A stretch of 64,000 bases of DNA, from NCBI GenBank assembly GCA_001189155.1, contig LFCP01000004.1:68782-132781 (forward strand). The letters are read 5' to 3'. Origin of the DNA: Parcubacteria bacterium C7867-006. GTDB taxonomy: Bacteria; Patescibacteriota; Minisyncoccia; Phycocordibacterales; DATDWN01. Position numbers and translations under genes: made by a program. The stretch's first letter is position 1. Each line of letters starts with the position of its first letter. Positions 37,439-60,147 of the stretch are shown here, one piece after another. The notes under the pieces were generated by a model that was given only the letters and a program-made list of their open reading frames with translations, had not been told where the DNA came from and did not search any database.

Positions 37439-38221
37439 CTATTCAAACTCTATATATAACGGTGAGTGATCTGATACCTCATCAGGCAAAACTCTGAAAT
37501 CTTTAACTTTTATTCCTGGTGAAGTAAAAATATAATCAGCAAAACGATGTTCTTTTTTATACAGACTTGTTCTCGTTGATTTTATATCAAATTTCTTCAC
37601 AAGATTAACAAGACCGGTATTCTCAAACATTTTTAAACTTTCAGTATCTGGCAAAAGATTAAAATCTCCACACAGCACAATAGGGTTAGTGACTTTGTTT
37701 ATAAAATTTACAATATTTGTAGATTGCAAAATCCTGTCATCTGTATCTGTCTTCCCCTTCCCATTCCATAAACCGTGAAAATTTATGACGGTTACTAAAC
37801 CATCTAGCGTATTTATATTTGCATATTGAATATTTCTTGCATGATTTCCAACATCACCTGTTGGCTCAAAATCTCTGTCTTTATAAACAAAGACATCTCC
37901 CTCCTCAACTAAATCTAAATCTTTTTTTATAAACATAGCCAGCCCATAGTGCTCTCCATAGTGTGGCCGAAAAAAACCATTAAAATCTGGCAAAACTGTA
38001 CTGATTTGCACATACAAATCCTCCATCATATTATGCAGAACAACCCCACCAACTATTGAATCATTCAACAATGAAGCTACCGCTTTGGATTTTTCATCCT
38101 TAACATTCCAAATTTCTTGAAAACAAAAAATATCAACTTCACTGGATTTTTGTTTGGCATAATCCAAAAATTCCCGATGACCAGCTCTAGCCCCCCAAGT
38201 ATTTAATGTTATTAGTTTCAT
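37439..38221 (-). CDS. endonuclease/exonuclease/phosphatase (EEP) family protein
   Basis: LNTWG...FCFQEIW N-terminal motif and C-terminal SDHSPL. Confidence 0.7.
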   Translation of the reverse strand: MKLITLNTWGARAGHREFLDYAKQKSSEVDIFCFQEIWNVKDEKSKAVASLLNDSIVGGVVLHNMMEDLYVQISTVLPDFNGFFRPHYGEHYGLAMFIKKDLDLVEEGDVFVYKDRDFEPTGDVGNHARNIQYANINTLDGLVTVINFHGLWNGKGKTDTDDRILQSTNIVNFINKVTNPIVLCGDFNLLPDTESLKMFENTGLVNLVKKFDIKSTRTSLYKKEHRFADYIFTSPGIKVKDFRVLPDEVSDHSPLYIEFE

Positions 38222-38244: not shown

Positions 38245-39669
38245 TTATTGTCTCACACCCTCTTCAGCTAAAATTTCCTCTGAAACTTTTTCCTGCAAAA
38301 TAGTTTCCTCTGTAAGTTTTGTTTTCTTCCAATCCCCTTTCATATACCAAGCTATAGTTATAAAACACATAACTATATTTGTAACAGAAAACGACCACCA
38401 GAGCCCCTGAATTCCTAACGCAGTGTGCTTTGAAAGAATGTATGCAAGTGGAAACTGCAATACCCATTGTGAAAGCAAGGCCAGAACCATTGAAACTTTC
38501 ATATTGCCAGATGCCCTGAACACACCGTTGAGAGAAAACTGAACTGCCATAAAACCCCAAGAAAGAGAAACAATCCTCAAAAATACGGCACCAGCATTTA
38601 TAACATCAACATCGTTAGGAACGAAAAATGCTATTATCTTTTTTGCCCAAATGAAAATCACTAAACCAAAAAATGTCATTGACCAAAAACTAATCCACCC
38701 ACCTATGCGACCTATTTCACTCGCTCTCTTTAGATTTTTCGCGCCGATGTTCTGACCAACTAGTGTTGAGATTGCCATAGACACTCCCATCATCGGAATG
38801 ATAACAACCTGAAGTATGTTTGAGCCAGCTCCATACGCCGCGACAGTGAGAGTTCCGAAACTAGCTATCAAAAAAGTAATAATTGTAAAACCTAGAGACC
38901 TTGCAGACTGTTCAATGGATGCAGGAAAACCGAGGAAAAACGCTCGTTTTATAAAAGTAAAATCTGGTTTGAAATCAGAAAGCGAAAGATGTATTCCGTA
39001 TTTACCATGCAGGAGAACAAACAGACCAATGATGGCAGCGATGCTTTGTGTTCCTAGCGTAGCAACAGCAGCACCCATAACACCCATCGCTGGGATAAAT
39101 TTCCAACCAAAAATAAACAGTGGGTCCAGAGCAAAGTTTAGAAGTACAGTGCCGAGAACTATGTACACAGGAAGTTTTGTCTCACCCGCCCCACGCATAA
39201 CAGACTGAAACATAAAGAAAAAGAAGTTGAAAACAAGACCAACAAAACTTACTCGCATAAAACCGAGTGCTCCAGCATAAACATCTGGAGCAACTCCCAT
39301 CATTTTCAAAATCATCGGGGTCAAAACATAACCAGCAATACCTATCACAGTAGAAACAACAACTATCATGAGCAGAGTTTGTGAGGCAACATGGTCAACC
39401 ATTTTTTGGTTCTTTGCGCCGAAATACTGTGCTATGAGGGTCGACCCAGCAATAGCAAAACCGATTCCCAGTGACATGCTGAAAAAAGCTATCGGACCTG
39501 AAACAGCGACCGAAGCTACAGCCGTACCACCAAGTCTTCCGACCCAAAATGCATCTGTTAACTGATACCCCGCCTGCAATATGTTTGCGAGGATTATTGG
39601 AACAGAAAGTGTGATAAGTGATTTTATAATCGGTCCCTCTAAAAGCTCTTTTCTTTTTTGATCATGCAT
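38245..39669 (-). CDS. MATE family efflux transporter
   Basis: 12 TM, MATE repeat organisation. Confidence 0.85.
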   Translation of the reverse strand: MHDQKRKELLEGPIIKSLITLSVPIILANILQAGYQLTDAFWVGRLGGTAVASVAVSGPIAFFSMSLGIGFAIAGSTLIAQYFGAKNQKMVDHVASQTLLMIVVVSTVIGIAGYVLTPMILKMMGVAPDVYAGALGFMRVSFVGLVFNFFFFMFQSVMRGAGETKLPVYIVLGTVLLNFALDPLFIFGWKFIPAMGVMGAAVATLGTQSIAAIIGLFVLLHGKYGIHLSLSDFKPDFTFIKRAFFLGFPASIEQSARSLGFTIITFLIASFGTLTVAAYGAGSNILQVVIIPMMGVSMAISTLVGQNIGAKNLKRASEIGRIGGWISFWSMTFFGLVIFIWAKKIIAFFVPNDVDVINAGAVFLRIVSLSWGFMAVQFSLNGVFRASGNMKVSMVLALLSQWVLQFPLAYILSKHTALGIQGLWWSFSVTNIVMCFITIAWYMKGDWKKTKLTEETILQEKVSEEILAEEGVRQ

Positions 39670-39762: not shown

Positions 39763-41256
39763 ATGAATGATAAATTTTTTTGTGCAATATCTTATAATGT
39801 TCATGATTCTTCAGTTTCATTTGCCCAAAATAACAAAGTAGTATTAGTTTTAGAAGCAGAAAGAATATTTAGAGTAAAAAGAAAGAGGTGCGATGAAAGT
39901 GAGATGGACGAACTAATAAAACATGGGCTTACATACCTAGGTATAAAAATAGAAGATATAAGTTATTGGACAATGACAACACTCCAAAACCCTATTTTAT
40001 TTCAAAAGGAAAATATTTTTGAAGAATCAACAGGGTTACCTAAAGACCCCTACTGGAAGAAATTTAAAATTTGTGGAGATGAAAAAAATGTACTAATTAT
40101 AAATCATCACTTGGCACACGCTGCTTCATACTTAATGTCTGATTTTAATAATGCAATAATCACCACGTGTGATGGGGGTGGAGACTACAACGAAAAAAAT
40201 GGACTGTCTGAATGTGTAGCCGTTTTTGCAGGAAATAATAATAAAATTGAAAGGATTAATGTCAACCTAGAAAATCATATAAGTGGCAAATTTTATGGTG
40301 CATGTTCATATTTTTTATATGGAGATATACATTGTGAAGGAAAAATGATGGCCCTTATTGCCTACGGCAAACCAAACGAGTCTGTTATTTCAAAGTTGAA
40401 AGAGAATTTCAAAAATTTAAATAGTTACTCTTTTGAACAGAGTATGGGTATCTTAAAAAAACTATTTCCAGACATTACCTCTGGCAATATATCAGTATCC
40501 GATAAAAATGTAGTTGATTTTGCTTCTTCAGTTCAAAAACTATTTTGTGATACAAGAATTGAAAACATTAAAAACATAGTTAGCTTGAGTAAAAGCTCTA
40601 ATTTGGTTATGGCTGGGGGAGTTAGTTTAAATTTGGATCTAAATACTGAAATTATAAATTCATTTAGCAATATGAAACATTTTATTGCACCTTGTTGCGA
40701 TGATACTGGGCAATCTTTGGGTGCTTTATGTTATTTAATTAGTGAAGTAACAGGACAAAAACCAGTGATTGAACTTCCCTACCTCGGTGTGGGAGAAGAA
40801 AATGTATATTACAATAATCTTGATATTGAAAAAGCGGTCCAAACTTTATTAGATGATGGTATCGTAGTTCTTCATAATGGAAAAGCTGAGATTGGACCAA
40901 GATCATTAGGAAACAGATCTTTAATTGCACGACCTGATAAAATTGAAATTAAGAGAAAGCTTAGTGAGAACATAAAACAAAGGGAGGGCTATAGGCCAAT
41001 TGCTCCTGTAGTTTTAGAAGATAAAGTTAATGACTACTTTATTGGTCCAAAATCTTCACCATATATGCTATATAAATACCAGGTTAAAGGTTCAATTAAA
41101 GAAAAAATTATAGGTGCAACTCATAATGACGGTAGTGCAAGAGCCCAGACAGTTAGTAAAAGTAGTAATGCTTTTTTATATGACTTAATAAGGTCATTTG
41201 GAGAAAAAACCGGTATTTATGTTTTACTAAATACATCTTTAAATTTAAAAGGTTAA
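39763..41256 (+). CDS. carbamoyltransferase (NodU/CmcH/TobZ family)
   Basis: N-terminal Kae1-like domain with HHLAHAASY motif, C-terminal carbamoyltransferase domain. Confidence 0.8.
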   Translation: MNDKFFCAISYNVHDSSVSFAQNNKVVLVLEAERIFRVKRKRCDESEMDELIKHGLTYLGIKIEDISYWTMTTLQNPILFQKENIFEESTGLPKDPYWKKFKICGDEKNVLIINHHLAHAASYLMSDFNNAIITTCDGGGDYNEKNGLSECVAVFAGNNNKIERINVNLENHISGKFYGACSYFLYGDIHCEGKMMALIAYGKPNESVISKLKENFKNLNSYSFEQSMGILKKLFPDITSGNISVSDKNVVDFASSVQKLFCDTRIENIKNIVSLSKSSNLVMAGGVSLNLDLNTEIINSFSNMKHFIAPCCDDTGQSLGALCYLISEVTGQKPVIELPYLGVGEENVYYNNLDIEKAVQTLLDDGIVVLHNGKAEIGPRSLGNRSLIARPDKIEIKRKLSENIKQREGYRPIAPVVLEDKVNDYFIGPKSSPYMLYKYQVKGSIKEKIIGATHNDGSARAQTVSKSSNAFLYDLIRSFGEKTGIYVLLNTSLNLKG

Positions 41257-41329: not shown

Positions 41330-42358
41330 TTATTTTAATTTAAGTACCAATATCTTTGTTGGTAAATATTGATTCTCAGATGTAATAAGATTAATACCTA
41401 ACGATTGAATAATTATAAAATTTGAACTTTCAATCACTTTTTCAAAGATCTTAAATTCACTAGTATATACGGCCACTACACCGTTTGGGTTAAGATGCTG
41501 TTCAGCATAATCGATAAAAGTCTTATAAAGTTTATCCAAATCTTCATTTTTAGAAATAACCATACCAAAAGGCAAATCAGATACTATTACATCAAATTTT
41601 CCAAAATCTGGATTATTAAATATATTAGCTTCCTTAACTGTAATTTTTTTTATCAATTCAGCGCTTTTTATATTCTGAATTGAAAGAGACAAATGTTCTT
41701 TATTGATATCAAATCCAATCAATGTATCCAAGTTTGAGTAACTCAGTCCTGCTTCTATAAGCAGAGTAGCACTTCCAGAAAATACATTTAGATATGTTTT
41801 AGCTTGCTCCAAGTTACACATAGAATTTAATGAATAAGCAATGGTAGGATCCATGGCTCCACTCATATTTCTCACCTTATATGCTCTAAAAGATAAAGGC
41901 CTAGGTGTAATCTGTATCCCAACTTCCCAAATTTCATCAATTTTTATTATGTGAATTTTTATATCAGACTCATCTTTTTTTGATAATTTAAAAGTATCTT
42001 CAATATAACTATTAATTTCGTTTACTTCAACGGAGTCAGAACCTGCGCAGGTAATTTTAAAGGTTCTAAAGGCACCTGGCTCATTACGACTCATTACCAT
42101 TTCAAGCAAACTACCTAGTAGCGATTTATGATTTGAAACATACATAGGATTGTACTTTGAACCACGAATAACAATATATGCCCTAGCAACACTTCTTAAG
42201 CTTCTAACTAAATTAAAATCATCAATAAAATCTAAATAGATTGAGTCGTTATTTTTTTCTATTACAGAAAATTTTGAATATTTATTAATCTCATCCAATA
42301 CGACACCTTGCAAACCAGGAATAAAAGATAGCTTTAGTTCTAATTTTTCTTCGTTCAT
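41330..42358 (-). CDS. THUMP-domain N6/N2-type methyltransferase (RlmL/Trm14-like)
   Basis: SGSATLLIEAG SAM motif, DLPFG (DPPY-class) motif. Confidence 0.55.
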   Translation of the reverse strand: MNEEKLELKLSFIPGLQGVVLDEINKYSKFSVIEKNNDSIYLDFIDDFNLVRSLRSVARAYIVIRGSKYNPMYVSNHKSLLGSLLEMVMSRNEPGAFRTFKITCAGSDSVEVNEINSYIEDTFKLSKKDESDIKIHIIKIDEIWEVGIQITPRPLSFRAYKVRNMSGAMDPTIAYSLNSMCNLEQAKTYLNVFSGSATLLIEAGLSYSNLDTLIGFDINKEHLSLSIQNIKSAELIKKITVKEANIFNNPDFGKFDVIVSDLPFGMVISKNEDLDKLYKTFIDYAEQHLNPNGVVAVYTSEFKIFEKVIESSNFIIIQSLGINLITSENQYLPTKILVLKLK

Positions 42359-44094
42359 ATATTGTTTTTAATTATACCAAAAACCTCGTTCACTCGAATC
42401 CTATGCATACAAAACTCCTCGCAACAATCAATTTCCTCACTTCTAGTATGGTGTTTGCATAGCTTATGCCTATTTTTATCGTAAATCGAAAAACAATTTT
42501 CTCCTAATATTAAATACTCTGGTCGTGTTGCTCCAAAAATAATAAAAGATTTTTTATTAAAGCTTTGTGCTATTATTGCTGGTCCAGAATCATTTCCAAC
42601 AAAAAACTTACAGTGCCTAACTAAAGACAGCATTTCTTTAAAAGAGTAGCTCTTCTCGAGCATAATACATTTTATCTTATACTCGGATTCTAATAAATTT
42701 TTTAATTCAGTATATTTATCATAACCCCAATTTCTTTTTTTTGCTTCCCAATCACTTGTAAAAGGTGCGATTAAAATATAATCCTCACCAACCACGTCCT
42801 CCCAGTCTTTATTTATAATAGGAATATTATTATTCACAACTTCATCAAAACCAATTGATTCCATATAACCCTGAATGTAACTTCTTTTGTTGTCACTAAG
42901 TTCATATACAAGCTTAACTTTTATTTCACAATCAATTTTATTTGAGTTAATATCACGATACTTATATATCTCATCATATTCATTAATTACTGAATAAATT
43001 TCAGAAATATCTGTGGCTAGGCAAACTTTATTAACATATTTTGATAAAAATCTGGCAATTGGTTCAGTCATTATAACGTCACCCAAATTACGATCCCTAA
43101 CCAAGCAAACTGATTTTATTTTACCACTTTCAATTTTTTCTCTAAAATACTTCCTATACCATATAGACAAGGTTGTATCATAAATTATTCTATCATTTGG
43201 AATGATTGTTCCCCAAAAAGTTCTGTGCTCAAAAAACCATCTTTTATTAATTTCGTCCAAATTATTCTTAAACTTTTTTACATACTCTCTAATAGTCATT
43301 ATCCTTTCAAGCCAGGGGGCATCATCTTTTGATGTTGAGTCATTTTCATACGTTGCCATTTTTTCCCATTTTTTATAAATAGCGTCAGCATTATTTCTAA
43401 ATTCAAAGTGCAACAATTTAGCTTCATGAAATGGTACTATATAGGGATTCCAGTTGTAATCACCAAAAAAATCAAGATTGTTTTCGGTTTTTACATAATG
43501 TCCACTAACAACAATCTCCATATTTTGATGATTTTTTACAAGCGCTTTTCTAAAATGCCCATGTTCTTGCCAATCTCTTTCTGGCCAAGGAAAATAAAAT
43601 TTTGTAGTATCTATTGAAGTCACTGGCGAACATCTATAATCAGACAAAGTATTATCAAATAAAGCATTCACCCAACCAACGGTCGCATATGGTATGTTAT
43701 TGTCTTCTAATCTATTAATAAATGAATGGATTGAATTATCTCTAACTGACATAAATTCATCAGCATCCAAAAAAACAAACCAGTCGATTTTATAATTTGC
43801 ATTAATGTGGTCGAGTATTTTCTTTTGAATAATTGCGTGATCAAAAACTGGATCGTTCTCCTCAATGACAATTACTTTTGGATTATCTTTATATAAATTG
43901 AGTATTCCCTTGGTGCCATCAGTTGAGCAATGATTAGCTATAAAAATATAATCAAAACCAAGATTAAGATGGTATGAAATATTGAAATCAATATATGATT
44001 CTTCGTCTCTTACAGACATAAGAATAGCGACTTTTTGGTCATTTTGCATATGCCCAATACTAGCATTTGTGTTAAAATTTTGAAACTTAATCAA
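42355..44094 (-). CDS. bifunctional glycosyltransferase: N-terminal GT2-like domain fused to C-terminal GT9 (heptosyltransferase-like) domain
   Basis: N-terminal nucleotide-sugar transferase fold motifs; C-terminal LGDVIMTEP...FVGNDSGPAII GT9 signature. Confidence 0.65.
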   Translation of the reverse strand: MIKFQNFNTNASIGHMQNDQKVAILMSVRDEESYIDFNISYHLNLGFDYIFIANHCSTDGTKGILNLYKDNPKVIVIEENDPVFDHAIIQKKILDHINANYKIDWFVFLDADEFMSVRDNSIHSFINRLEDNNIPYATVGWVNALFDNTLSDYRCSPVTSIDTTKFYFPWPERDWQEHGHFRKALVKNHQNMEIVVSGHYVKTENNLDFFGDYNWNPYIVPFHEAKLLHFEFRNNADAIYKKWEKMATYENDSTSKDDAPWLERIMTIREYVKKFKNNLDEINKRWFFEHRTFWGTIIPNDRIIYDTTLSIWYRKYFREKIESGKIKSVCLVRDRNLGDVIMTEPIARFLSKYVNKVCLATDISEIYSVINEYDEIYKYRDINSNKIDCEIKVKLVYELSDNKRSYIQGYMESIGFDEVVNNNIPIINKDWEDVVGEDYILIAPFTSDWEAKKRNWGYDKYTELKNLLESEYKIKCIMLEKSYSFKEMLSLVRHCKFFVGNDSGPAIIAQSFNKKSFIIFGATRPEYLILGENCFSIYDKNRHKLCKHHTRSEEIDCCEEFCMHRIRVNEVFGIIKNNI

Positions 44095-44872
44095 TAAGAC
44101 CGTCTAAATATTTTTTAAACTTATAAAAAGCAGGATGATCAGGGTAAACAGCGTGAAGTAAGGTTATGCCTTCCAAATTTTCAATGTCCTGATTTTCGTT
44201 TTCACCAACAAGAATATATTTATCCTTCGGTAATACATATAACTCTCCACTCTTAAAATATTTAGTAAGTGCAATTGCTAGCGCACCCTGTTCATCGTGC
44301 CAAGTTTGATCACTTTCTTTTATATTATTTTTCCACCATTTAAATTCAATCATTAAATCTTTTGAGATGTCATACCCAGCTTTCTGTATAAAAAAACCGG
44401 CATTTACAAAGGGTGTATCTTGACTAGCCCTATTACTCATCGCCCCAAGTTGCCAAGATTGGCCAAAAAATTCATCCATAATAGCAAATTTCATATTATC
44501 ATCAGATAAAAATTTATCGATTTCTTCCGGATATTTTAATAAAAAAACATCTGAATCAATATGAAATTCAGTTTGCTTGTTATCCAATCTTGATGTGGGG
44601 CACCATTTCATCCAAGTGGCTTTAGATGGTATACAAAAAAAACAACTACTCTCAGATTGTAATTCTCTAACATCGACACCACCATCAAGATAATCTAAGA
44701 CTCGCTTTGTGTTGTCTGTATAAACAATATATTGATGATTATTTCCGAAGTATTTTTTGAATGAGAGGACGCTGAAACGAAGTAAATCAATATTTTTTGA
44801 GACGTGACTACCCCATATTGACCATCGAAAAATCATTTTGTAATTGTAGCATAATTGTGAAAGTCTAAACAA
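44087..44872 (-). CDS. hypothetical protein, possible nucleotide-diphospho-sugar transferase
   Basis: weak DxD-like HIDSDVF; cluster context. Confidence 0.3.
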   Translation of the reverse strand: MFRLSQLCYNYKMIFRWSIWGSHVSKNIDLLRFSVLSFKKYFGNNHQYIVYTDNTKRVLDYLDGGVDVRELQSESSCFFCIPSKATWMKWCPTSRLDNKQTEFHIDSDVFLLKYPEEIDKFLSDDNMKFAIMDEFFGQSWQLGAMSNRASQDTPFVNAGFFIQKAGYDISKDLMIEFKWWKNNIKESDQTWHDEQGALAIALTKYFKSGELYVLPKDKYILVGENENQDIENLEGITLLHAVYPDHPAFYKFKKYLDGLID

Positions 44873-44898
44873 TTTTTATTCATACGATATTTTGTAAA

Positions 44899-45639
44899 TC
44901 ATATTACTATTTTATCGGGCTTCCAATATTTTTTTACTTTCTTTTTGAAATCTTGATAAGATTTAAATATTTCTGGGTGATTTTTATTCTCCTCCATCCA
45001 TTTATCTAAATTTGTATATAATCCATGAAATCCAAATTGCTTGTCATATATATCATCATCTCCCTCTAAAGCAAACCTCCTAGCCAGCTCCACCGGGGCA
45101 AACCTTATTCCTTCTGAAGTTAATAAATCTCTGTACCAAACACACAACGCTATATCTTCAGGATGGTAAGTTTTAAATACCCCACTCAAATACATCCTTG
45201 AAGAAACTTCAAGAAATTTCCTACTTCTAATACAAAAACCTCCATTACCAACTATACGTGTATTTCTTAGGTTCTCTGGGAATCCAAAATCGTATATTGA
45301 CCAGTCCTTAACGATCCACGGAGAGCCTATGTAATCATAATCAAGAAAATCATTAGTCCAGCTATTTGGATTTAGAACAAACCCATCCCACTGAATAAGT
45401 AACACGAACTCGGTTTCTACGTATTTTTTTAAATCACTGAGACAAAATTTAGAAAAATCTTCATAACTAGATATTTTGCCAATTTTTACCCACCTTTTAT
45501 CATCAATATAGTCTGAACTTAAAATCTTTGACTTGGCAAAAAAAATTTTTTCTTCACATAAATCCATAACTTTTTGCAGTCTAGAAGCATCAACACAATC
45601 TATTCCAAGCAATGTTACATTTTCTAACTTTAATTTCAT
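44899..45639 (-). CDS. hypothetical protein (DUF5672-like) in glycosylation cluster
   Basis: ORF, context. Confidence 0.3.
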   Translation of the reverse strand: MKLKLENVTLLGIDCVDASRLQKVMDLCEEKIFFAKSKILSSDYIDDKRWVKIGKISSYEDFSKFCLSDLKKYVETEFVLLIQWDGFVLNPNSWTNDFLDYDYIGSPWIVKDWSIYDFGFPENLRNTRIVGNGGFCIRSRKFLEVSSRMYLSGVFKTYHPEDIALCVWYRDLLTSEGIRFAPVELARRFALEGDDDIYDKQFGFHGLYTNLDKWMEENKNHPEIFKSYQDFKKKVKKYWKPDKIVI

Positions 45640-45665
45640 ATAAAATTGCTTTACTAATTACTTAT

Positions 45666-46634
45666 TTATAAAAAATTGGTCATTATCATCTTAAACGTAT
45701 CAAAATTATTACTAAGATACGAGATAGTTTTTAAATCATCAGACAATAACCTATATAGCATTGATAAATTTTTAGCATTTTTCTCTAATATCTTATCTTC
45801 ATACCACGTATTCATTATCATATTATCATACAAATAAAAACTAATGGTCATACTTACTTTTTCATAAGATATACTTGATTTACTTAAATACCCCCTACAA
45901 AATGATTCCGCATAACCAAAGCTTCTTTTAGTAAATTTACTTTGAAAACAAACAGAAAATATTGTTCTTATTAAGTCTAATTCCCTGTTCCCAACTCTTG
46001 AGTGCTCAAAATCAAACAACAAAAATTTATTATTTTTTGTCAAAATGTTCTTAAGATGAAAATCACCGTGAAGATAAGAATTTTTAGGTGGATATTTTAA
46101 ATTTAAAATTTCCACCCTACTTTTTTTAAGACATGAGATTTTTTTATTTAACGATTTAATAACTTTAGAATTATTATTTATTCCACTTCTTAAAATAAAC
46201 TTTTTGTAATTTATATCAAATAAATTAGATGAAACCTTATCCCATTTACCATTATTGAAATTAATGGATCCAAAATTGTGCAATTCCCCCAAGAAAGCTC
46301 CTGCCAAGAATAATCTATTCTTATTTCTTCTTAAAATTTCACCACCACTTATATATGGATAAAGAACACCAGCACGCTTTTTATCAATCCTAATATAATA
46401 TGAATCGTTTGTATTTTTTAGTGGTAATATTACATCAAACCCACCTCTTCTAAAACGTTTCTCAAAATTTAAGATCGATTCAACCCAGTTCAAATCATAT
46501 GTTTTAAACAAAAAAACATTTCCATTATTGCGTATAATATATTTCTCGTTTAGCCCTCTATTGTAATAACTAGCCGTAATTGGTTTTGAATTAAAATATT
46601 TTCTCTTTATTTTCTTGAGTAAATTTGTATTCAT
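45666..46634 (-). CDS. aminoglycoside phosphotransferase (APH)/choline-kinase-like kinase
   Basis: HGDFHLKNIL catalytic loop, DFE metal site. Confidence 0.6.
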   Translation of the reverse strand: MNTNLLKKIKRKYFNSKPITASYYNRGLNEKYIIRNNGNVFLFKTYDLNWVESILNFEKRFRRGGFDVILPLKNTNDSYYIRIDKKRAGVLYPYISGGEILRRNKNRLFLAGAFLGELHNFGSINFNNGKWDKVSSNLFDINYKKFILRSGINNNSKVIKSLNKKISCLKKSRVEILNLKYPPKNSYLHGDFHLKNILTKNNKFLLFDFEHSRVGNRELDLIRTIFSVCFQSKFTKRSFGYAESFCRGYLSKSSISYEKVSMTISFYLYDNMIMNTWYEDKILEKNAKNLSMLYRLLSDDLKTISYLSNNFDTFKMIMTNFL

Positions 46635-47917
46635 CAGAGATTTATATTTACTTTTAAAAAATTAAAAATAATCTTAGAAAAATCAAACTTATCAATAGTT
46701 GTCATACTTTGGTCAATAATACTTCTTTTACTATCGTAATTCATAAGGGATGAGTGAATGATTTTGTCAGCAAATAATTCAGTATCTCTTGGATCAATAT
46801 ATATTGATTCATCAGGATTAAATGCGTCGACTGCACCGTCAATATCACTTATCATTGTTATATAGTTCATATCCTTAGAAAATAATTTGGCCTCAATAGA
46901 AGTATGTGGGAATGGATCCATAAGAGATGGAATACACACCAAATCAGTATTATTTGTTCTTAATATTGTTCTCCAAATTTCAGGATTAAAATCATCTATT
47001 ACTATATACCTAGATGTCTCTGATAAAATTTCCATAACTTCATCAAAATAGTCCTTTTCACCAGAATTATTTGGTATTTGTAATACAAGAAAATGGTCTG
47101 GTAATTTGACACTTGCATTTACCCAAGCCCTTGTCAACTCTTTGAAACCTTTAGCGATTGAGCAACGCCCCCATGAGAAGATGATTTTTTTATTACTATC
47201 AATCTCAATTCCAAACTTTTTCAAATCTTCATTATTAAATTTTTTATCCAGAAATTCATTATATTTTTCGAAACACAATCCATTCTGTAAAAAATCAGAC
47301 TCATTAAAAACTAAACCATAATCTTCTGACATTCTTTCTGAAAATCTTTTTCCCAAAGCAATAGTTTTAGAATTACTGTCTTTTGCAATCAAATCAAAAC
47401 ACATAGTCTCTTCAATTATACGATTATGTCTCCACCCCTCATCTCCAAAAGCATGATTCTTCCCTGTACTCAATGGAAAATAGAAGCACTTTAATTTTTT
47501 ATCATTTACTAATTCTTTATATTTAGCAAAAAACAAAAAAGGGGTATCATTTAAAATAATATAATTTTCCTCATCAAATTTAAGTGTTAAATTTAATGCA
47601 GTAACTAAAGATATAGATGCATAGTCCCATTCTTTAATACTCCTCCACATATCCCACTCACTCTCTCCCTTTGTTGAATTACACAGTGGTATTAGTAGAC
47701 CACCAGTTTTATTGACCAAATTATAACTATCTTCAAAACATTGGCTATTAAACACTTTTGATTGTTTGTTTACATTTATATAAGCAATACTTACTTTAAA
47801 ATCATATGTATCTGAAAGTTTTGTCAGAGCAAAAACTAAATTTTTTGCAATAGTACCAACACCACTGTAATGAGTGCTTATTCCATCATATGTTGCTATG
47901 ATAATATGTTTTTTCAT
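46634..47917 (-). CDS. GT-B fold glycosyltransferase (GT4-like)
   Basis: length, architecture, context. Confidence 0.45.
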   Translation of the reverse strand: MKKHIIIATYDGISTHYSGVGTIAKNLVFALTKLSDTYDFKVSIAYINVNKQSKVFNSQCFEDSYNLVNKTGGLLIPLCNSTKGESEWDMWRSIKEWDYASISLVTALNLTLKFDEENYIILNDTPFLFFAKYKELVNDKKLKCFYFPLSTGKNHAFGDEGWRHNRIIEETMCFDLIAKDSNSKTIALGKRFSERMSEDYGLVFNESDFLQNGLCFEKYNEFLDKKFNNEDLKKFGIEIDSNKKIIFSWGRCSIAKGFKELTRAWVNASVKLPDHFLVLQIPNNSGEKDYFDEVMEILSETSRYIVIDDFNPEIWRTILRTNNTDLVCIPSLMDPFPHTSIEAKLFSKDMNYITMISDIDGAVDAFNPDESIYIDPRDTELFADKIIHSSLMNYDSKRSIIDQSMTTIDKFDFSKIIFNFLKVNINL

Positions 47918-47922
47918 TTTTT

Positions 47923-48477
47923 TTAATTAATTTGGTTATATTTATATAGCATATCCAAAGCTCGTTTTACAATATGGTCACCAATTTCACCCCATTTTAC
48001 GTATTGTCCATAATCTTTAGGGTCAACTAGTTTAATTTCTGTGATATCTACATCGGGGTCAGAAACAAAATCTCCATATGGTTCAACAATACACAATGAA
48101 CGAGTTTGTCTTATAATCCTATCTTTCTCATGTACATCTATATAGCCAATAAGATCTAGGTGTAAAACTTTCATATTTGATTCTTCTTTTACTTCTCTAA
48201 CTGTAGCCTCTTGCCATGTTTCTCCTTTCTCTATTCCACCACCAGGAAAAGTCCAATACCCCTTGTCGCCCGCATAAACCACAACTAACTTGTCGCCATA
48301 AAAACAGAAACCATGAACGGCTTGAAGAATCTTTCCATCGAGCCCATCATTAGGGTCAAAACCTTCTCTATAAACATAATCAACCATCTCTCCATTACGT
48401 CCTTTGAATTGTGATTTTATTTCCATATTTAGATAGTATACCAAAACCCTAAAACTACCGTAGACTACACAAAACAA
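47923..48477 (-). CDS. NUDIX hydrolase (paralog 1)
   Basis: Nudix box GGGIEKGETWQEATVREVKEESNM. Confidence 0.8.
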   Translation of the reverse strand: MFCVVYGSFRVLVYYLNMEIKSQFKGRNGEMVDYVYREGFDPNDGLDGKILQAVHGFCFYGDKLVVVYAGDKGYWTFPGGGIEKGETWQEATVREVKEESNMKVLHLDLIGYIDVHEKDRIIRQTRSLCIVEPYGDFVSDPDVDITEIKLVDPKDYGQYVKWGEIGDHIVKRALDMLYKYNQIN

Positions 48478-48492
48478 AGCTATATTTCATAA

Positions 48493-49413
48493 TTATATTT
48501 TAGAGAAAAAATTATATTTCCGATACATATATGACCGAATAACTCTTTTTTCAGAATTGGGATCTTCAGCTAAATCACAAAAATAAGTAGCGGCATCTGA
48601 CAATAAAGAAAATTTAATCCATGAATACAAATTCTCATTTTTTTCTATTTTAATTTCAGAAACTGAATTATATCCATCCAAAAAGGCATCAAAAATTAAA
48701 AAATTGGGTTCATCAGATCCATCAGGAAACGACCATTCGACCGCAGCAAGAGCAAGATCCTTTATAAGCGGACCAGTGCAGCTCCAATCAAAATCTATAA
48801 TCCCCACCAGATTATCCCCGTTATCAAAAATAACATTCCCTGGTCTATAGTCATTATGGATTAAACCTGTAACTTCATTTTGATTTCTAGCAAATTCTAG
48901 CGAAGACTCGACTTCTTGCACAAATTTCTCACCACCCTCAAATTCTTTTTTAAACTTATCAGATATTTTCAAGACTCTTTCTAATTCAGAAAATATTGTT
49001 CTTTTTCTGGGAGAAACTTGAGAAAAACCAGCCCCTGCATTCCTCATCTCACCCAGACCTCTTCCGGCTGAATATGCGATATTTAATTCCGGTAAATGGT
49101 CTTTGTCTATATTAATATTGTGTCCATCAACATACTCAAACATAACAGCAACCACCTCATTAACAACAGTATAACAATCTCCTTTTAAAGTTTTAATCCA
49201 TTTGGAAAATAGACTAGATTTTTTTGAAAGATATTGATTAGCTTCATATTCAAATTTTATATCCTCAACAGGCAACCTCTTACTTATTCTCAGTACCTTT
49301 TTCTGATCTTCTCCAACTAAATATACAAAATTATCTGCTGACTCTCGCAATAAAACTACAGGAATTGATTCCGGCAAACTATATTCTGATAATACTCTCA
49401 TTATATCTTTCAT
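48493..49413 (-). CDS. APH-family phosphotransferase/kinase
   Basis: HNDYRPGNVIF catalytic loop, IDFDWS motif. Confidence 0.65.
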   Translation of the reverse strand: MKDIMRVLSEYSLPESIPVVLLRESADNFVYLVGEDQKKVLRISKRLPVEDIKFEYEANQYLSKKSSLFSKWIKTLKGDCYTVVNEVVAVMFEYVDGHNINIDKDHLPELNIAYSAGRGLGEMRNAGAGFSQVSPRKRTIFSELERVLKISDKFKKEFEGGEKFVQEVESSLEFARNQNEVTGLIHNDYRPGNVIFDNGDNLVGIIDFDWSCTGPLIKDLALAAVEWSFPDGSDEPNFLIFDAFLDGYNSVSEIKIEKNENLYSWIKFSLLSDAATYFCDLAEDPNSEKRVIRSYMYRKYNFFSKI

Positions 49414-49433
49414 AATTAAAATAGTTTTCTTTA

Positions 49434-49958
49434 TTATTTATTTTTATAATACTCCTCTTTCATTTCTATTGCCCGTTTTACAATATGATCACCAATCTCG
49501 CCCCAATCAAAATATTGTTTGTAATCTTTTGGATCAATTAACTTTATTTCAGTTATACTTCCATCTGGATCAGAAACAAAGTCTCCATACGGTTCAACTA
49601 TACAAAAATAGCGTAACTGATTAAATATTTTTCCATCAAAATGAACCTCTTGGTACCCAATTGGTGCAAACGAAAGAACTCTCATATTTGATTCTTCGTG
49701 AATTTCTCTTTTCAAACATTCTTCAAATGTCTCTCCATCCTCAATACTTCCTCCTGGCAAAATCCAGTGACCACCACCTTTACTACTATATACAACAACC
49801 ATGTTATCCCCAACAAAACAAACCCCATATGTTTGGGTTACCTTATTATCCAAAAGATGACTAAATGAATCTGCGTCTTCATAGGTGACTTCTGCTAGCT
49901 TACCTTCTTTGTCAGTGAATTGAGATTTAATTTGCATTATATTTATTTTAACTGACAA
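49434..49958 (-). CDS. NUDIX hydrolase (paralog 2)
   Basis: Nudix box PGGSIEDGETFEECLKREIHEESNM; about 55% identical to 47923..48477 incl. shared C-terminus WGEIGDHIVKRA. Confidence 0.8.
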   Translation of the reverse strand: MSVKINIMQIKSQFTDKEGKLAEVTYEDADSFSHLLDNKVTQTYGVCFVGDNMVVVYSSKGGGHWILPGGSIEDGETFEECLKREIHEESNMRVLSFAPIGYQEVHFDGKIFNQLRYFCIVEPYGDFVSDPDGSITEIKLIDPKDYKQYFDWGEIGDHIVKRAIEMKEEYYKNK

Positions 49959-51096: not shown

Positions 51097-51360
51097 ATGA
51101 ATATAAATAAATCTAAAATACTACGTAGGTTAAAAATTATTGAAGGGCAAGTTAGAGGACTGGGAGAAATGGTCGAAAAAGGTGCATATTGTATTGATGT
51201 CATAACCCAGGGTTCTGCAGTCAAACAAGGTATTTCAAATATTGAAGATATGCTCATGGAGCATCATCTTTCGCATTGCGTTGTTAAGCAAATAAAAGAA
51301 GGAAAACCAACAAAAGCTGTTGAGGAAGTTCTTAAGGTTTATAAACTTAAACGTAAATAA
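51097..51360 (+). CDS. csoR: CsoR/RcnR-family copper-sensing repressor
   Basis: 87 aa; C-H-C metal ligands (CIDV...HHLSHC). Confidence 0.8.
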
Positions 51361-51365
51361 AATAT

Positions 51366-53660
51366 ATGAATCATACTCAAACATATAAAATAAAAGGAAT
51401 GCATTGTGCATCATGTGCAAGCATCATTGAAAAAACTTTTAAAAAATCAGACGGTGTTCATTCGGTCGAAGTAAATTATGGAACTGAAACAGCTAAAATT
51501 GCTTTTGATGAATCAAAAACTAGTCCACATCATCTTTCTAAAAATATTGAAAAGTTGGGGTACTCCCTTGATATTCCTAGTGCTGAATCAATGGGCATGA
51601 GTGCTAATGAACACGCGGCTCATTTAGGCTTGAACCAATCAAAAAAAGAGAAATTGGCGGAAGTTGCAGACATGCGAACGAAAGTGCTTTCAGCTATTCC
51701 AATTGCTATTCTTGCTGCTTTTATTATGGGTTGGGATATATTTGCTGAATATAACATTGCTCCTGCAATGAGTTATACACTTAAGGAATTTTTCCATCAT
51801 CTCCTTCCAATACTTGCCACTTATATTTTGTTTGTAGTTGGCAAACCATACTTATTTGGTTTTTATAGATTTCTCCGATATGGCAAGGCAAACATGGACA
51901 CTCTTATTGGGATTGGTACCAGTACCGCTTTTTTATATAGTTTTGCTGTAACTGCATTCGAGGATGTTCTCCGCCCTTTTATTAATGTTGAATATCAATA
52001 CTATGATGTCACAATCGTGGTTATTACTTTTATCGCATTGGGTAAATATCTTGAAGCAAGATCAAAAATTAAAACTGGAGATGCTATTGAAAAACTTCTT
52101 AATCTTCAAGCAAAGACCGCACTCGTTATTCGTGATGGAAAAGAAGTTGAGATTTCAGTTAATGACGTTAAACATAATGATCTGATAATTGTTAAGCCTG
52201 GGGCAAAGATTCCAGTAGATGGTGTTGTAACCGAAGGTAGTTCTTTTATTGATGAATCCATGGTTACAGGAGAACCAATGCCAGTACAGAAAAAGGTTGG
52301 CGACAGTGTTGTGTCTGGAACGATTAACACCAATGGCTCATTCACTTTTAAGGCAACTAAAGTGGGGTCTGAAACATTACTTGCACAGATTATAAAGATG
52401 GTGGAGGAAGCTCAAGGAAGTCGTGCACCAATACAAGCTCTTGCAGACAAAATATCAGCAATTTTTGTACCAATTGTTCTGGTAATCGCTTTTCTCACTC
52501 TTGGAGCGTGGCTCATAGTCGGGTCTCAGTATTTAGGTTTCTCTCAAGCTCTTTCATTCGGGCTAGTTTCATTTGTTGGGATTCTCGTTATCGCATGTCC
52601 ATGCGCACTTGGTTTGGCTACACCGACTGCTATTATTGTTGGTGTCGGCAAAGGTGCCAAAGAAGGCATTCTTATTAAAGATGCGGCTACACTTGAAAAA
52701 CTCCATAAGGTAAACACAGTTGTAGTTGATAAGACAGGCACCATCACTATTGGTAAGCCAACTCTTGTCGATATTCAAAATAATTCAAATCTTAACGACG
52801 AAGAATTTATATCAATTCTCGCCTCACTTGAGAAAAAGTCAGAGCACCCAATTGCACACGCCATTGTAAACTACGCACAAGAAAAAAATATTCCAATATC
52901 AGAAGCTCTGGTATTTGAAGCAATACAAGGTAAAGGATTAAAAGGATCAATCAAAGGAACAGAATACTTCGTGGGTAATACAAAACTTGTAAGTGATCTT
53001 ATCCTTTCATTCGACAATATGAAATTGAATGAGTTTACATCACAAGGTAAAACTCCAGTTATTCTAGCAAGTAAAGAAAAAGTTCTCGGTTTTGTTATGG
53101 TCGCTGACGAGATAAAGCAAGAATCAAAGCAAGCTGTTTCTGATCTTCATGATTTAGGCGTCAAGGTTGTGATGCTTACAGGTGATGATGAAAAAGCTGC
53201 TAAATACATTGCATCACTTGTTGGTATTGATGAAGTTGTAGCCCATGTGTTGCCACAGGATAAACTTGAAAAGATAAAAGAACTTCAATCACATGGTCTA
53301 GTAGTTGCTATGGCAGGTGATGGTGTAAATGACGCCCCAGCACTCGCTCAAGCAGATGTTGGCATCGCTATGGGAACTGGAACAGATGTGGCAATAGAAT
53401 CAGCTGGCATTACACTTCTGGGCGGAGATATTTCAAAGCTGGTGAAAGCTATTAAGCTTTCTAAAATCACCATGAGAGGTATTAAGCAGAATCTTTTTTG
53501 GGCATTCATCTACAACATTGTTGGTATTCCTTTGGCCGCAGGAGCTTTGTACCCAGTTTTTGGGTGGCTATTAAATCCTGTATTTGCAGGATTTGCGATG
53601 GCAATGTCCTCAGTATCAGTAGTGTCAAATTCACTTCGTATTAAAGCGAAGAAATTATAA
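51366..53660 (+). CDS. copA: copper-translocating P1B-type ATPase
   Basis: [27 protein letters not shown]. Confidence 0.95.
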
Positions 53661-53678
53661 AAATTAACTATAAATAAT

Positions 53679-54320
53679 ATGAATAATAAAATTGTATTTG
53701 GAATCGGAGGAATAATAATTGGTTTAGTTATTGCAATATTTTTTACAACAACTATATCTCCATATAGTAATGCTGGTTTTGGAATGATGGGATGGAGAAG
53801 TAATTCTGGCTCAAATCAAGGACTTACAGGTAACACTCAAGTAGCAAACAATATCGATAGACATTTTATTGAACAGATGATTCCGCATCATGATGGTGCT
53901 GTTGCTATGGCAAAGTTAGCATTAGAAAAATCAAAGCGTACAGAAATTAAAACTCTCGCTACTGCAATAATTGAAGGTCAAACAAAAGAAATTCAAGATA
54001 TGGAAGTTTGGTATAAGGATTGGTTTGGAAAAGATGTCCCACAGGTTAGCACTGGGATGATGGGTGGTGGGATGATGTCTTCTAGTGGAATGCATATGGG
54101 TGGGCAAGAAGATATGACTGTACTCGAAAATGCAAAAGATTTTGATAAGGCATTTCTTGAAGCAATGATTCCACATCACCAACTCGCTCTTATGATGGTA
54201 CGAATGTTGGAAGCAGGGTCAAATCGACCAGAAATGCTTCAGCTTGCAAAAAATATTACCAACTCGCAGTCGAAAGAGATACAGCAAATGCAGGCTTGGT
54301 ATGTGCAATGGTACAAGTAA
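53679..54320 (+). CDS. DUF305 domain protein (copper-resistance associated)
   Basis: duplicated MIPHHxxAVxMA motifs. Confidence 0.75.
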   Translation: MNNKIVFGIGGIIIGLVIAIFFTTTISPYSNAGFGMMGWRSNSGSNQGLTGNTQVANNIDRHFIEQMIPHHDGAVAMAKLALEKSKRTEIKTLATAIIEGQTKEIQDMEVWYKDWFGKDVPQVSTGMMGGGMMSSSGMHMGGQEDMTVLENAKDFDKAFLEAMIPHHQLALMMVRMLEAGSNRPEMLQLAKNITNSQSKEIQQMQAWYVQWYK

Positions 54321-54348
54321 ATTATTAAAAATAACTACACATAAATAT

Positions 54349-54570
54349 ATGAAAGTATCAAAAATAATACATGTCAGCAGTGTTGTGGTCGGTTTAATCG
54401 GAGTAATTTCATTTTTAGCTGCAGTTTTCGGAGGAGCTGACAATTCCGTATTGGGTGTAACTAAAATCGACGCTCTGCTCTGTGCCGGAATACTTATCCT
54501 TATTGCAACATGGCTTCAGGTCGCAACAATTCATCACATGATGCTTGAAAAGCGTGGTGAAAATATTTAA
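54349..54570 (+). CDS. small 2-TM membrane protein in copper operon
   Basis: start trimmed to MKVSKII so as not to overlap DUF305 gene. Confidence 0.4.
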   Translation: MKVSKIIHVSSVVVGLIGVISFLAAVFGGADNSVLGVTKIDALLCAGILILIATWLQVATIHHMMLEKRGENI

Positions 54571-54586
54571 ATTGTCGTAGTAATTT

Positions 54587-55594: not shown

Positions 55595-55609
55595 TCTTAT
55601 TAATAATCT

Positions 55610-57331: not shown

Positions 57332-57373
57332 ACCTATATTGATGACGCAATGGTTCTGGGAGTCAAGGAGAAA

Positions 57374-57949: not shown

Positions 57950-57951
57950 AG

Positions 57952-59690: not shown

Positions 59691-59693
59691 AAA

Positions 59694-60128: not shown

Positions 60129-60147
60129 GCTAAAAAATGTTAAAATC

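Follow-up and report, generated by a model that had tools for sequence, protein, structure and literature searches.

Gene content of the cluster

The window analysed here (64,000 nucleotides of contig LFCP01000004.1 from Parcubacteria bacterium C7867-006) contains a row of tightly packed minus-strand genes running from 49958 to 41330. The row begins with Nudix hydrolase paralog 2 (49434..49937; 167 aa counted from the ATG, the listed TTG ORF reaching 49958; PF00293, 1.9e-12), followed by the APH-fold kinase 2 (48493..49413; 306 aa; PF01636, 2.7e-22), Nudix hydrolase paralog 1 (47923..48426; 167 aa, also counted from the ATG; PF00293, 7.6e-12), a divergent GT-B glycosyltransferase of the GT4-like type (46634..47917; 427 aa) and the APH/CotS-like kinase 1 (45666..46634; 322 aa; PF01636, 6.1e-9; EcKL, 9.8e-5), whose start overlaps the GT4-like stop codon by 1 nt. 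Further downstream are a DUF5672 protein (44899..45639; 246 aa; PF18922, 1.6e-18), a GT8-type GT-A glycosyltransferase (44087..44836; 249 aa), a bifunctional glycosyltransferase that joins a GT2-like (GT-A) and a GT9-like (GT-B) domain (42355..44049), and a SAM-dependent methyltransferase of the UPF0020 / Trm14-TrmN type (41330..42358; 342 aa; PF01170, 6.7e-27), the start of which overlaps the stop of the fusion gene by 4 nt. The genes are real, and most were typed correctly in the initial annotation, which passed over the DUF5672 gene and the 249-aa protein between kinase 1 and the fusion and left the methyltransferase unnamed, although this gene falls within the coordinates it gave.

A NodU/CmcH-type carbamoyltransferase gene (39763..41256, plus strand; Carbam_trans_N and Carbam_trans_C matches) is convergent with this row. 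A premature stop shortens its ORF; the JGI copy of the same organism contains 21 more bases and encodes 527 aa. Next to it, two minus-strand genes assigned by Pfam family encode a MatE-family transporter (38245-39669), the sole membrane protein adjoining the cluster, and an endonuclease/exonuclease/phosphatase-family (EEP) protein (37439-38221). The annotated ORFs of the window include neither a sugar-1-phosphate nucleotidyltransferase nor any gene of the lipid A, Kdo or heptose pathways.

A conserved module in Patescibacteria

The comparison covered the window and about 37 related loci in metagenome-derived genomes of Patescibacteria (38 loci in total). Wherever the sequence suffices (approximately 37 independent loci), the GT4-like, GT8-like, GT2-GT9 and methyltransferase genes follow one another in an invariant order; the GT4-like gene was found in 33 of the 38 loci and the methyltransferase gene in 32. 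The carriers include Taylor-, Zambryski-, Yonath-, Campbell-, Azam-, Falkow-, Kuenen- and Roizmanbacteria, WWE3 and Gracilibacteria bins, although some hosts were assigned via metagenome bins and such assignments may be wrong. Identities to the window proteins are 48-73% (GT4-like), 54-69% (GT8-like), 57-71% (GT2-GT9) and 49-62% (methyltransferase). In L008 and P0065, the GT8-like and GT2/GT9 proteins form a single fused chain. Downstream of the methyltransferase, all loci with enough downstream DNA carry a pyruvyltransferase-like gene, usually accompanied by a DUF4254 gene, except the window, which has neither. The slot upstream of the GT4-like gene holds a SAM hydrolase, Nudix, histidine phosphatase or EEP gene. 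The module proteins lack a hydrophobic segment (top 19-residue Kyte-Doolittle mean of 1.27), and annotation of the module revealed no flippase, polymerase or initiating phosphoglycosyl transferase.

The glycosylation cluster reported initially stands, with these four genes as its core: a strongly conserved, all-soluble module of sugar-adding enzymes in Patescibacteria. The kinases, the carbamoyltransferase, DUF5672 and the two Nudix genes lie outside this core as accessories. DUF5672 fills the same slot between the GT4-like and GT8-like genes in L025, L026, L028 and L029; in L042, the DUF5672 protein carries a fused NTP_transf_2 domain, and two Nudix genes come next. The carbamoyltransferase recurs at the corresponding position in L001, L009 and L035 and is on the strand of the module in L008, and EEP homologs adjoin the module in L028, L030, L036 and L041. 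On balance, we favour the view that the window carries a conserved accessory module that many Patescibacteria share, in a version enlarged in this strain.

The listed ORF of the fusion protein (42355-44094, 579 aa) matches Glyco_tranf_2_4 (PF13704, 5.3e-14, residues 29-125) and Glyco_transf_9 (PF01075, 3.1e-9, 37 bits against a cut-off of 22, residues 482-528). These matches bear out the GT2-GT9 fusion proposed earlier but not its length of 579 aa; because the orthologs without exception use the start that corresponds to the ATG at 44049, the protein is probably 564 aa long. The C-terminal domain is GT9-like by both sequence and fold, and the occurrence of GT9 in a Parcubacterium is, as first suggested, worth remarking. 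The structure model of the fusion protein is of low confidence (pLDDT 57), and on this model the GT9-like domain is structurally closest to TibC (PDB 4rap), which is only about 1 Z unit ahead of WaaC and WaaF. A Cys/His cluster (C531, H533, C542, C543 and C547) is invariant near the C-terminus. The GT4-like protein scores just above the PF00534 cut-off (27.0 versus 26.4 bits), and the best PDB match of its ortholog profile is the C-terminal part of Pyrococcus GlgA (E 3e-4). The 249-aa protein, which is without a Pfam match, has a GT8-type fold, and its top matches include glycogenin, UGGT, AgtA, GlyE and LARGE1. The ortholog profile of the methyltransferase aligns with Trm14 (3tlj, 5e-14) and TrmN (3tma, 1.4e-9) from about residue 139 onward and contains an invariant DLPFG motif, and no THUMP or other RNA-binding domain is detectable in residues 1-138.

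The Nudix pair and the kinases

The two Nudix paralogs share 55% identity over 164 aa (E 3e-62), in agreement with the initial estimate, and have in common the 12-mer WGEIGDHIVKRA, a motif found family-wide. The duplication is old, because the 3' 178 nt of the two genes are only approximately 75% identical. The Nudix box of paralog 2 is intact except for a G to N change at the second-last position. Orthologs of paralog 2 (83-88% identical) and of paralog 1 (84-89%) occur in L026, L028 and L029, where the two genes are immediate neighbours and no kinase separates them. The paralog 2 family comprises 1044 matches, and every named source is Patescibacteria or unclassified bacteria. Both paralogs match generic MutT-like models, far below every curated NCBIfam cut-off. 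About 8 of the 38 loci have Nudix genes, from two unrelated families, within the module or next to it, in most cases immediately upstream of the GT4-like gene. A residual link between Nudix enzymes, kinases and glycosyltransferases is also seen in a single Nudix-APH fusion protein (P0324) and in one GT2-Nudix fusion (L043).

Both kinases are APH-fold proteins, as originally proposed, and match PF01636. They align with each other over 74 aa at 28% identity by BLASTP (E 6e-4), and kinase 1 aligns with the kinase 2 family profile over 187 columns at 21% identity by hhalign (probability 86%). The two kinases are not duplicates of each other, and therefore the Nudix-kinase unit was not duplicated; of the duplicated pair claimed earlier, only the Nudix half holds. 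Kinase 2, which sits between the two Nudix genes in the window, best matches homoserine kinase II (65 bits, cut-off 256) and CotS (58 bits, cut-off 173) among the NCBIfam models; on the CotS model (cut-off 172.7), kinase 1 reaches 3.1e-7 and kinase 2 reaches 8.3e-16, both far under the cut-off. Neither kinase classifies as a resistance APH: kinase 2 scores 18 bits against APH(3') (cut-off 205) and 21 against Mph(B) (cut-off 615), and kinase 1 matches neither family. The kinase 2 family, with 283 matches in Patescibacteria, has HNDYRxxN and DFD as invariant motifs, and kinase 1 carries HGDFHLKN and DFE motifs. Kinase 2 adjoins the module only in the window and in L008, where it follows the module. 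Kinase 1 is unique to the lineage of the window; it was found in none of the other module loci, and a metagenome scan returned only short matches of 29-97 residues around the catalytic loop.

Proposed function and comparison with known systems

The LPS core oligosaccharide is built by waa genes through ordered cytoplasmic sugar addition, E. coli LPS-core clusters hold GT8-type enzymes as well, and serine-rich and autotransporter proteins are glycosylated before export. The enzyme families of the module resemble those of LPS-core clusters, and our leading interpretation, held with modest confidence, is that a defined, decorated oligosaccharide is assembled step by step in the cytoplasm on a non-LPS acceptor. 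The core enzymes would add several sugars in a fixed sequence onto one conserved acceptor, which would not be lipid A but more probably a protein or some other lipid or polymer of the envelope. The product would then be decorated: the two unrelated APH-fold kinases may phosphorylate the glycan or a precursor in a WaaP-like role, the carbamoyltransferase, truncated in this assembly, may act in a WapO-like role, and the old Nudix pair may trim the pool of a nucleotide-sugar donor or nucleotide by-product. The analogy is drawn because the Pseudomonas inner-core cluster (waaF-waaC-wapG-waaP-wapP-wapQ-wapO) pools GT9 enzymes (waaC and waaF), a GT4 enzyme (wapG), several heptose kinases and the carbamoyltransferase wapO (PMC8005017). 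As in waa/rfa clusters, GT9, GT4-type GT-B, kinase and NodU-type carbamoyltransferase genes are gathered in one cluster, and soluble or peripheral enzymes would add sugars singly to a fixed acceptor before phosphate and carbamoyl decoration. Unlike in these clusters, no lipid A, Kdo or heptose-pathway genes are seen among the annotated window ORFs, GT2 and GT9 are joined in one protein, the core includes a Trm14-like methyltransferase and a pyruvyltransferase-like protein, and the host is a Parcubacterium, presumed to be without an outer membrane. The kinases are APH/CotS-like and do not match the Kdo/WaaP family, so the WaaP-like role is an analogy only. The methyltransferase also fits a glycan module badly, since Trm14-like enzymes normally act on RNA guanine-N2 and not on sugars, and glycan genes tend to vary, whereas identities of 48-73% (57-71% for the fusion) are maintained here across distant lineages.

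The initial annotation proposed that a duplicated kinase-Nudix unit feeds activated sugars to the glycosyltransferases: the kinases would produce sugar-1-phosphates and the Nudix enzymes would hydrolyse NDP-sugars in a salvage or editing loop that gives an unusual activated sugar. Anomeric sugar kinases of the APH fold exist (NahK, AmgK and maltokinase), both kinases retain their catalytic motifs, and the recurrent Nudix genes, the two fusions and the position of kinase 2 in L008 are consistent with such a loop. However, the invariant unit does without it, as the kinases are absent from 36 of the 38 loci and the sister loci keep the Nudix pair with no kinase; the Nudix domain of P0324 is of a different type from the window pair, the Nudix and kinase families also occur in unrelated, housekeeping-type contexts, the Nudix matches are only generic, and no nucleotidyltransferase that would close the loop is present in the cluster or the annotated window ORFs. 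This proposal was not borne out as a duplicated unit, and we regard the loop itself as unlikely. A protein acceptor is a tentative possibility that we would not expect to hold but that would refine the stepwise assembly model rather than exclude it. In this case, the module would carry out cytoplasmic protein O-glycosylation, with the GT9-like domain acting like TibC/AAH and the GT4, GT8 and GT2 enzymes extending the glycan as in serine-rich-repeat adhesins. All enzymes are soluble with no lipid-carrier step encoded, several of the top GT8-like matches act on proteins or protein-borne glycans, and the GT9-like domain has TibC as its best structural match. Late in the C-lobe, both proteins have a Cys-rich element that probably binds metal, and the cluster of the fusion sits roughly where TibC has its four-Cys iron finger (Cys 339, 342, 358 and 370 of 406 residues; PDB 4rap; PMC4358343). 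Conversely, TibC outscores WaaC and WaaF only narrowly on a low-confidence model, the Cys/His spacing differs, a GT-A domain replaces the N-terminal beta-barrel of TibC, and no autotransporter substrate gene, nor any conserved candidate substrate gene, adjoins the module across the 38 loci. Serine-rich-repeat adhesin islands (GtfA/B, GlyE and relatives) differ in that the module has no SRR protein or accessory Sec genes and includes a GT9-like domain and a methyltransferase.

Two further readings start from the methyltransferase. Its gene overlaps the GT2/GT9 gene and is present in every locus with enough downstream sequence, its catalytic domain with the (D/N)xP(F/Y)G motif is closest to the THUMP-type tRNA m2G6 enzymes Trm14/TrmN, and its whole length aligns weakly with the EmtA rRNA methyltransferase model (54 bits). 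Together with the nucleotide/phosphoester hydrolases in the slot upstream of the GT4-like gene, and given that eukaryotic queuosine glycosylation employs GT4- and GT2-family enzymes, this could indicate a methylated, glycosylated nucleoside in tRNA or rRNA. We consider this very improbable: no THUMP similarity or other RNA-binding domain is detectable in residues 1-138, a set of five glycosyltransferase-type domains plus a pyruvyltransferase points to an oligosaccharide rather than a nucleoside modification, and we know of no bacterial RNA glycosyltransferase of this kind. The gene also differs from those of Trm14/TrmN in being fixed within a glycosyltransferase operon. Least probable of all is a secreted, oligosaccharide-type secondary metabolite, with the methyltransferase providing EmtA/AviRa-type self-resistance and the MatE pump acting as the exporter. 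The AviRa match (27.5 bits, cut-off 25.7) is limited to the generic SAM-fold half, the EmtA score is far under its cut-off of 625, and MatE adjoins the module in the window but in none of the other 37 or so loci. Carbamoyl-, pyruvyl- and phosphotransferases would serve as tailoring enzymes and a distant GT8-like homolog (P0386) is fused to an NRPS condensation domain, yet no scaffold-forming or sugar-modifying pathway genes were found.

The accessories of the proposed oligosaccharide module have partial counterparts elsewhere. In Bacillus subtilis cotSA-cotS, a GT4 glycosyltransferase gene is followed by a CotS-family kinase-like gene. The GT4-like gene and kinase 1 are arranged in the same manner, but the CotS scores are low, the organism does not sporulate and the pairing occurs only in the window genome. 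Nudix hydrolases tied to glycan pathways include the GDP-mannose hydrolase WcaH/Gmm and the ADP-sugar pyrophosphatase AspP. As in these systems, a Nudix gene lies beside glycosyltransferase genes and could plausibly tune the donor pool; GlgA, the best PDB match of the GT4-like protein, uses ADP/UDP-glucose, and GT9 enzymes use ADP-heptose. In contrast to both, the window enzymes lack the sequence signature of either family and are kept as a pair of old paralogs.

Horizontal transfer appears to carry the module from one lineage to another. Its GC content is below that of the flanks in 22 of 24 loci (0.33 +/- 0.03 versus 0.39 +/- 0.05), a feature that is common in surface-glycan loci and no proof of transfer by itself. 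Identity is out of step with taxonomy, with WWE3 and Roizmanbacteria (70%) exceeding Campbellbacteria (62%). A serine recombinase gene adjoins the module in L025, L029 and L035 and is located 6 kb away in the window.

A conserved module around the fusion gene

The minus strand of the window carries ten head-to-tail ORFs between 50617 and 41330, spaced by no more than about 60 nt or joined by short overlaps. In order, they encode an MliC-domain membrane protein, Nudix 2, kinase 2, Nudix 1, a GT4-like protein, kinase 1, a DUF5672 protein, a 249-aa protein with no Pfam match, the GT2/GT9 fusion protein and a UPF0020 methyltransferase. A carbamoyltransferase gene on the plus strand is convergent with this row. 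The GC content at 40–50 kb of the window is 0.28–0.33, compared with 0.32–0.44 (mostly 0.35–0.39) elsewhere, and promoter and terminator scans performed no better than on shuffled sequence. The fusion protein is 100% identical to P0001, a protein from Parcubacteria bacterium C7867-006, and over 21.7 kb the window shares 99.9% identity with a JGI contig of this organism.

All window proteins were mapped onto about 37 further independent loci, and the neighbouring ORFs were clustered. The GT4-like protein, the 249-aa protein, the fusion protein and the methyltransferase were always found together in constant order, with the methyltransferase start overlapping the stop of the fusion gene. A PS_pyruv_trans-like gene, usually accompanied by DUF4254, then follows in every locus with enough downstream DNA except the window; three loci encode the two as a single fusion. 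Both are missing from the entire 64 kb of the window, where a MatE transporter and an endonuclease/exonuclease/phosphatase family (EEP) protein follow instead. What emerges from the comparison is a compact, strongly conserved module that has a core of four genes, usually growing to five or six when those behind it are counted, and that places a GT9-like domain in organisms presumably devoid of LPS. The window holds a strain-specific variant of this conserved, apparently mobile Patescibacteria glycosyltransferase module. No description of it turned up in the literature searches, which covered the module itself, DUF4254, DUF5672 and the occurrence of GT9 in Patescibacteria and yielded no relevant paper. 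The initial annotation had described a glycosylation cluster containing a GT2-GT9 fusion and a duplicated Nudix–kinase pair, suggestive of activated-sugar editing or salvage. The fusion and its glycosylation context stand; the duplicated Nudix–kinase unit and the salvage pathway are not supported.

The module apparently moves between lineages. In 22 of the 24 loci compared, its GC content is below that of its flanks, with differences reaching 0.15, and identity does not track taxonomy. A serine recombinase adjoins the module in three loci and lies 6 kb away in the window. The window has neither a second copy of the 3´ end of the neighbouring tRNA-Gln nor an att-like repeat of this tRNA, and so gives no evidence for integration at the tRNA. 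Searches of PHROGs and PADLOC yielded no match for the three glycosyltransferase proteins and only a generic PADLOC methyltransferase match (mad2) for the methyltransferase; Nudix proteins and carbamoyltransferase did give matches. On this basis, the idea that the module stems from a phage or a defence system was dropped. Relatives of the fusion protein comprise 176 clustered sequences, and the 120 listed share 62–84% identity with it. The named sources among these 120 are all Patescibacteria groups, barring a few generic or likely mislabelled records. Four module contigs of 3 to 18 kb (L017, L018, L034 and L036) are binned as Lentimicrobiaceae, Chlamydiae, Gammaproteobacteria and Bdellovibrionaceae, which reflects either mis-binned Patescibacteria contigs or transfer beyond the radiation.

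The core enzymes

The fusion protein combines two glycosyltransferase domains, as originally annotated. Its N-terminal 300 residues form a GT2-type GT-A domain with a family-model match and a DxD motif, and PF13704 matches the protein at 5.3e-14. PF01075 matches at 3.1e-9, with 37 bits against a cut-off of 22, over only 47 residues (482–528); precomputed PF01075 matches are also present on homologs. The GT9-like domain adopts a GT-B fold whose closest solved neighbours are GT9 enzymes. The elements that are invariant in 13 orthologs include LGD324VIMTEP, GNDSGP (486–490), D95xD97 and a Cys/His cluster near the C-terminus. GNDSGP aligns with the TNDSG of WaaF; by reference to WaaC and WaaF, the N-lobe Gly-Asp is presumably catalytic and the C-lobe (N/T)DSG presumably binds the donor. 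Sequence as well as fold supports the GT2-like plus GT9-like assignment. The structural model is weak (pLDDT 57) because the alignment is shallow, and it was used for domain-level fold assignment only. A plain PDB sequence search with the protein gave no significant match. An exact look-up of the 579-aa form also returned no match because the listed start codon is wrong; translation from the ATG at 44049 gives 564 aa.

The 249-aa protein displays a GT8-type fold and a DxD motif. Neither PF01501 nor any other Pfam family was matched by 15 orthologs at E values up to 5, PF03407 was reached by one distant homolog only, and PDB chains were found by fold search and not by sequence profile. The protein is GT8-like by fold and not a sequence member of GT8. 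It is joined to the GT2/GT9 protein in locus L008 and in the homolog P0065. A distant homolog, P0386 (792 aa; 29% identity, E 1.6e-27), carries a fused NRPS-type condensation domain. Kinship of DUF5672 to either the GT8-like family or the fusion protein was considered and rejected, since hhalign shows no relation. The GT4-like protein matches PF00534 at 27.0 bits against a cut-off of 26.4, and the top match of its ortholog profile is GlgA (GT5), at 3e-4 and confined to the C-terminal 100 residues. To judge from its sequence, it is a putative divergent GT-B enzyme.

Least explained among the features of the module is its Trm14-like methyltransferase, which is locked into the operon. It matches PF01170 with 94.9 bits and a PDB Trm14 entry at 5e-14, and its catalytic domain is closest to Trm14 and TrmN. 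The (D/N)xP(F/Y)G motif is present as D261-L-P263-F264-G265, which is invariant or nearly so. No THUMP domain was detected in 16 orthologs at E values up to 1. The N-terminal 155 residues taken separately retrieve only EmtA (E 0.01, in one of ten sequences), and nothing detectable matches the first 138 residues.

Nudix, kinase and other accessory genes

Nudix 1 and Nudix 2 are 55% identical and have WGEIGDHIVKRA in common, a motif conserved throughout their family. The DNA identity of the two genes is only about 75% across the 3´ 178 nt. Orthologs of each paralog in other genomes are 83–89% identical, whereas the paralogs share about 52%. These values, together with the family-wide motif, indicate that the duplication is old and that both copies were retained; no recent gene conversion between them is visible. 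Both paralogs exceed the PF00293 cut-off and keep every Glu and Arg of the Nudix box GX5EX7REUXEEXGU, with the second-last position changed from G to N. Their best NCBIfam matches are generic MutT, YtkD or RppH models at 30–37 bits, far under the cut-offs. Signatures of NDP-sugar-specific Nudix enzymes (Gmm/WcaH, AspP/NudF) were sought in both, and neither a curated equivalog match nor a specificity motif was found. Past the Nudix box, both lack Pro at +15/16 and Tyr at +16–18, the residues that define the specificity motifs. The family is widespread in Patescibacteria (1044 matches) and also occurs in unrelated contexts.

The two kinases are not duplicates of each other, with 28% identity over 74 residues by BLASTP and 21% over 187 columns by profile comparison, which removes the proposed duplicated Nudix–kinase unit. 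They are also not resistance APHs: kinase 2 scores 18 bits against 205 for APH(3´) and 21 against 615 for Mph(B), and kinase 1 matches neither. The Kdo/WaaP family PF06293 is matched by neither kinase at E values up to 0.01. Sequence search of the PDB with kinase 1 returned no match, and a metagenome scan for its relatives matched unrelated kinases only, in short segments at their catalytic loops. The kinase 2 family is widespread in Patescibacteria (283 matches), again including unrelated contexts; it adjoins the module in the window and L008 only, and kinase 1 is found in no other locus. The Nudix and kinase genes are optional additions and not the core of the system, and a salvage pathway built on their duplication is not supported.

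The slot upstream of the GT4-like gene varies between loci. The Nudix pair occupies it in the window and in L026, L028 and L029, and L035 has a pair at a distance of three genes upstream. Two loci have a Nudix of a different kind there, 138 aa long, which a third locus carries on the downstream side of the module. NTP_transf_2 is found in the slot in two loci and an EEP phosphoesterase in two, with a third having the latter one gene further upstream. In eight loci (L002, L007, L009, L010, L011, L015, L019 and L038), a SAM hydrolase (SAM hydroxide adenosyltransferase, PF01887/PF20257) lies directly upstream of the GT4-like gene. In seven of these eight, the GT4-like protein belongs to a divergent clade with 48–52% identity to that of the window, the exception being L002 (66%); the module may therefore have two variants.

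DUF5672 lies between the GT4-like and GT8-like genes in five loci, and a carbamoyltransferase is present in five. Patescibacteria also encode fusions of such families: a 450-aa Nudix–APH kinase protein whose Nudix domain is of a different type (P0324, L045 4140–5492), a 438-aa GT2–Nudix protein (L043 8527–9843), and a 302-aa protein joining a window-type Nudix to a second Nudix of another type (P0162). L042 holds a DUF5672–NTP_transf_2 protein followed by two Nudix genes. In L045, a cytidylyltransferase, an aminotransferase, a Gfo/Idh/MocA oxidoreductase and an EEP protein lie beside the kinases. Apart from P0162, these fusions hint at a looser link between the families.

Candidate acceptors and neighbouring features

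No protein of the module has a hydrophobic segment, and neither a flippase nor a polymerase nor an initiating transferase was detected among its genes. In the most economical reading, up to five glycosyltransferase-type domains would glycosylate one conserved acceptor stepwise in the cytoplasm, and the product would then receive methyl, pyruvyl, carbamoyl or phosphate decoration. The kinases might phosphorylate the glycan, and the Nudix pair might trim the donor or by-product pool. The mix of families resembles that of LPS inner-core clusters; the Pseudomonas inner-core cluster groups GT9 and GT4 with several heptose kinases and with wapO, a carbamoyltransferase (PMC8005017). By analogy, a WaaP-like role may be proposed for the kinases. 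Genes of the gmhA/hldE/gmhB type or for other NDP-sugar synthesis were absent among the annotated window ORFs.

For the acceptor of such stepwise glycosylation, a protein is a serious candidate. In the low-confidence model, the protein heptosyltransferase TibC is marginally the best structural neighbour of the GT9-like domain, by a small margin over WaaC and WaaF. TibC has a four-Cys iron finger (PMC4358343) formed by Cys 339/342/358/370, and the fusion protein carries invariant C531, H533, C542, C543 and C547 in a comparable place with different spacing. In contrast to the N-terminal beta-barrel of TibC/AAH (BAHT), the fusion protein has a GT2-type GT-A domain at that position. The locked-in Trm14-like methyltransferase is the basis of an alternative, in which it would be a true RNA enzyme and the glycosyltransferases locked with it would help to make a tRNA or rRNA nucleoside that is both methylated and glycosylated. 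We consider this very improbable; if true, it would represent a bacterial RNA-glycosylation system that has spread horizontally among Patescibacteria.

Patescibacteria are tiny, mostly uncultured, host-dependent bacteria. To our knowledge, their surface chemistry is almost unknown, and it probably governs host attachment. Since the module is small and all of its proteins are soluble, heterologous expression is feasible. Identification of the product would reveal which glycan, on the envelope or on protein, the Patescibacteria radiation has in common, and also what a Trm14-type methyltransferase does within a glycosyltransferase operon.

The window carbamoyltransferase gene (39763–41256, plus strand) is without 21 bases that are present in L048, the JGI copy. 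A premature stop at 41254–41256 results, giving 497 aa instead of 527 aa with loss of YPIANTLE and the subsequent residues; the shortened form may be genuine, as a strain variant or pseudogene, or else an assembly artefact. Between the tRNA-Gln and the recombinase, a block at 51097–56008 contains copper or metal resistance genes, which encode a CsoR-like repressor, a CopA-type P-type ATPase, a DUF305/DUF4142 protein, a DsbD_2-HMA protein and a cupredoxin-like protein. The adjoining block at 56009–62342 is a probable mobile element. It comprises a large serine recombinase (56009–57331), a ParB-N6/N4 DNA methylase (57952–59223), a LOOT RNA (59520–59635, 88 bits) immediately followed by an HNH endonuclease ORF (59640–60128), and then HsdM and Hypoth_Ymh genes. 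Elsewhere in the window, a cyclic-di-GMP-II riboswitch (23820–23903, minus strand; 63 bits, E 8.6e-12) is positioned a short way upstream of the gene for a 967-aa protein (20876–23779, minus strand) rich in Cadherin and Big_9 repeats, which together look like a c-di-GMP-controlled adhesin in a Parcubacterium.
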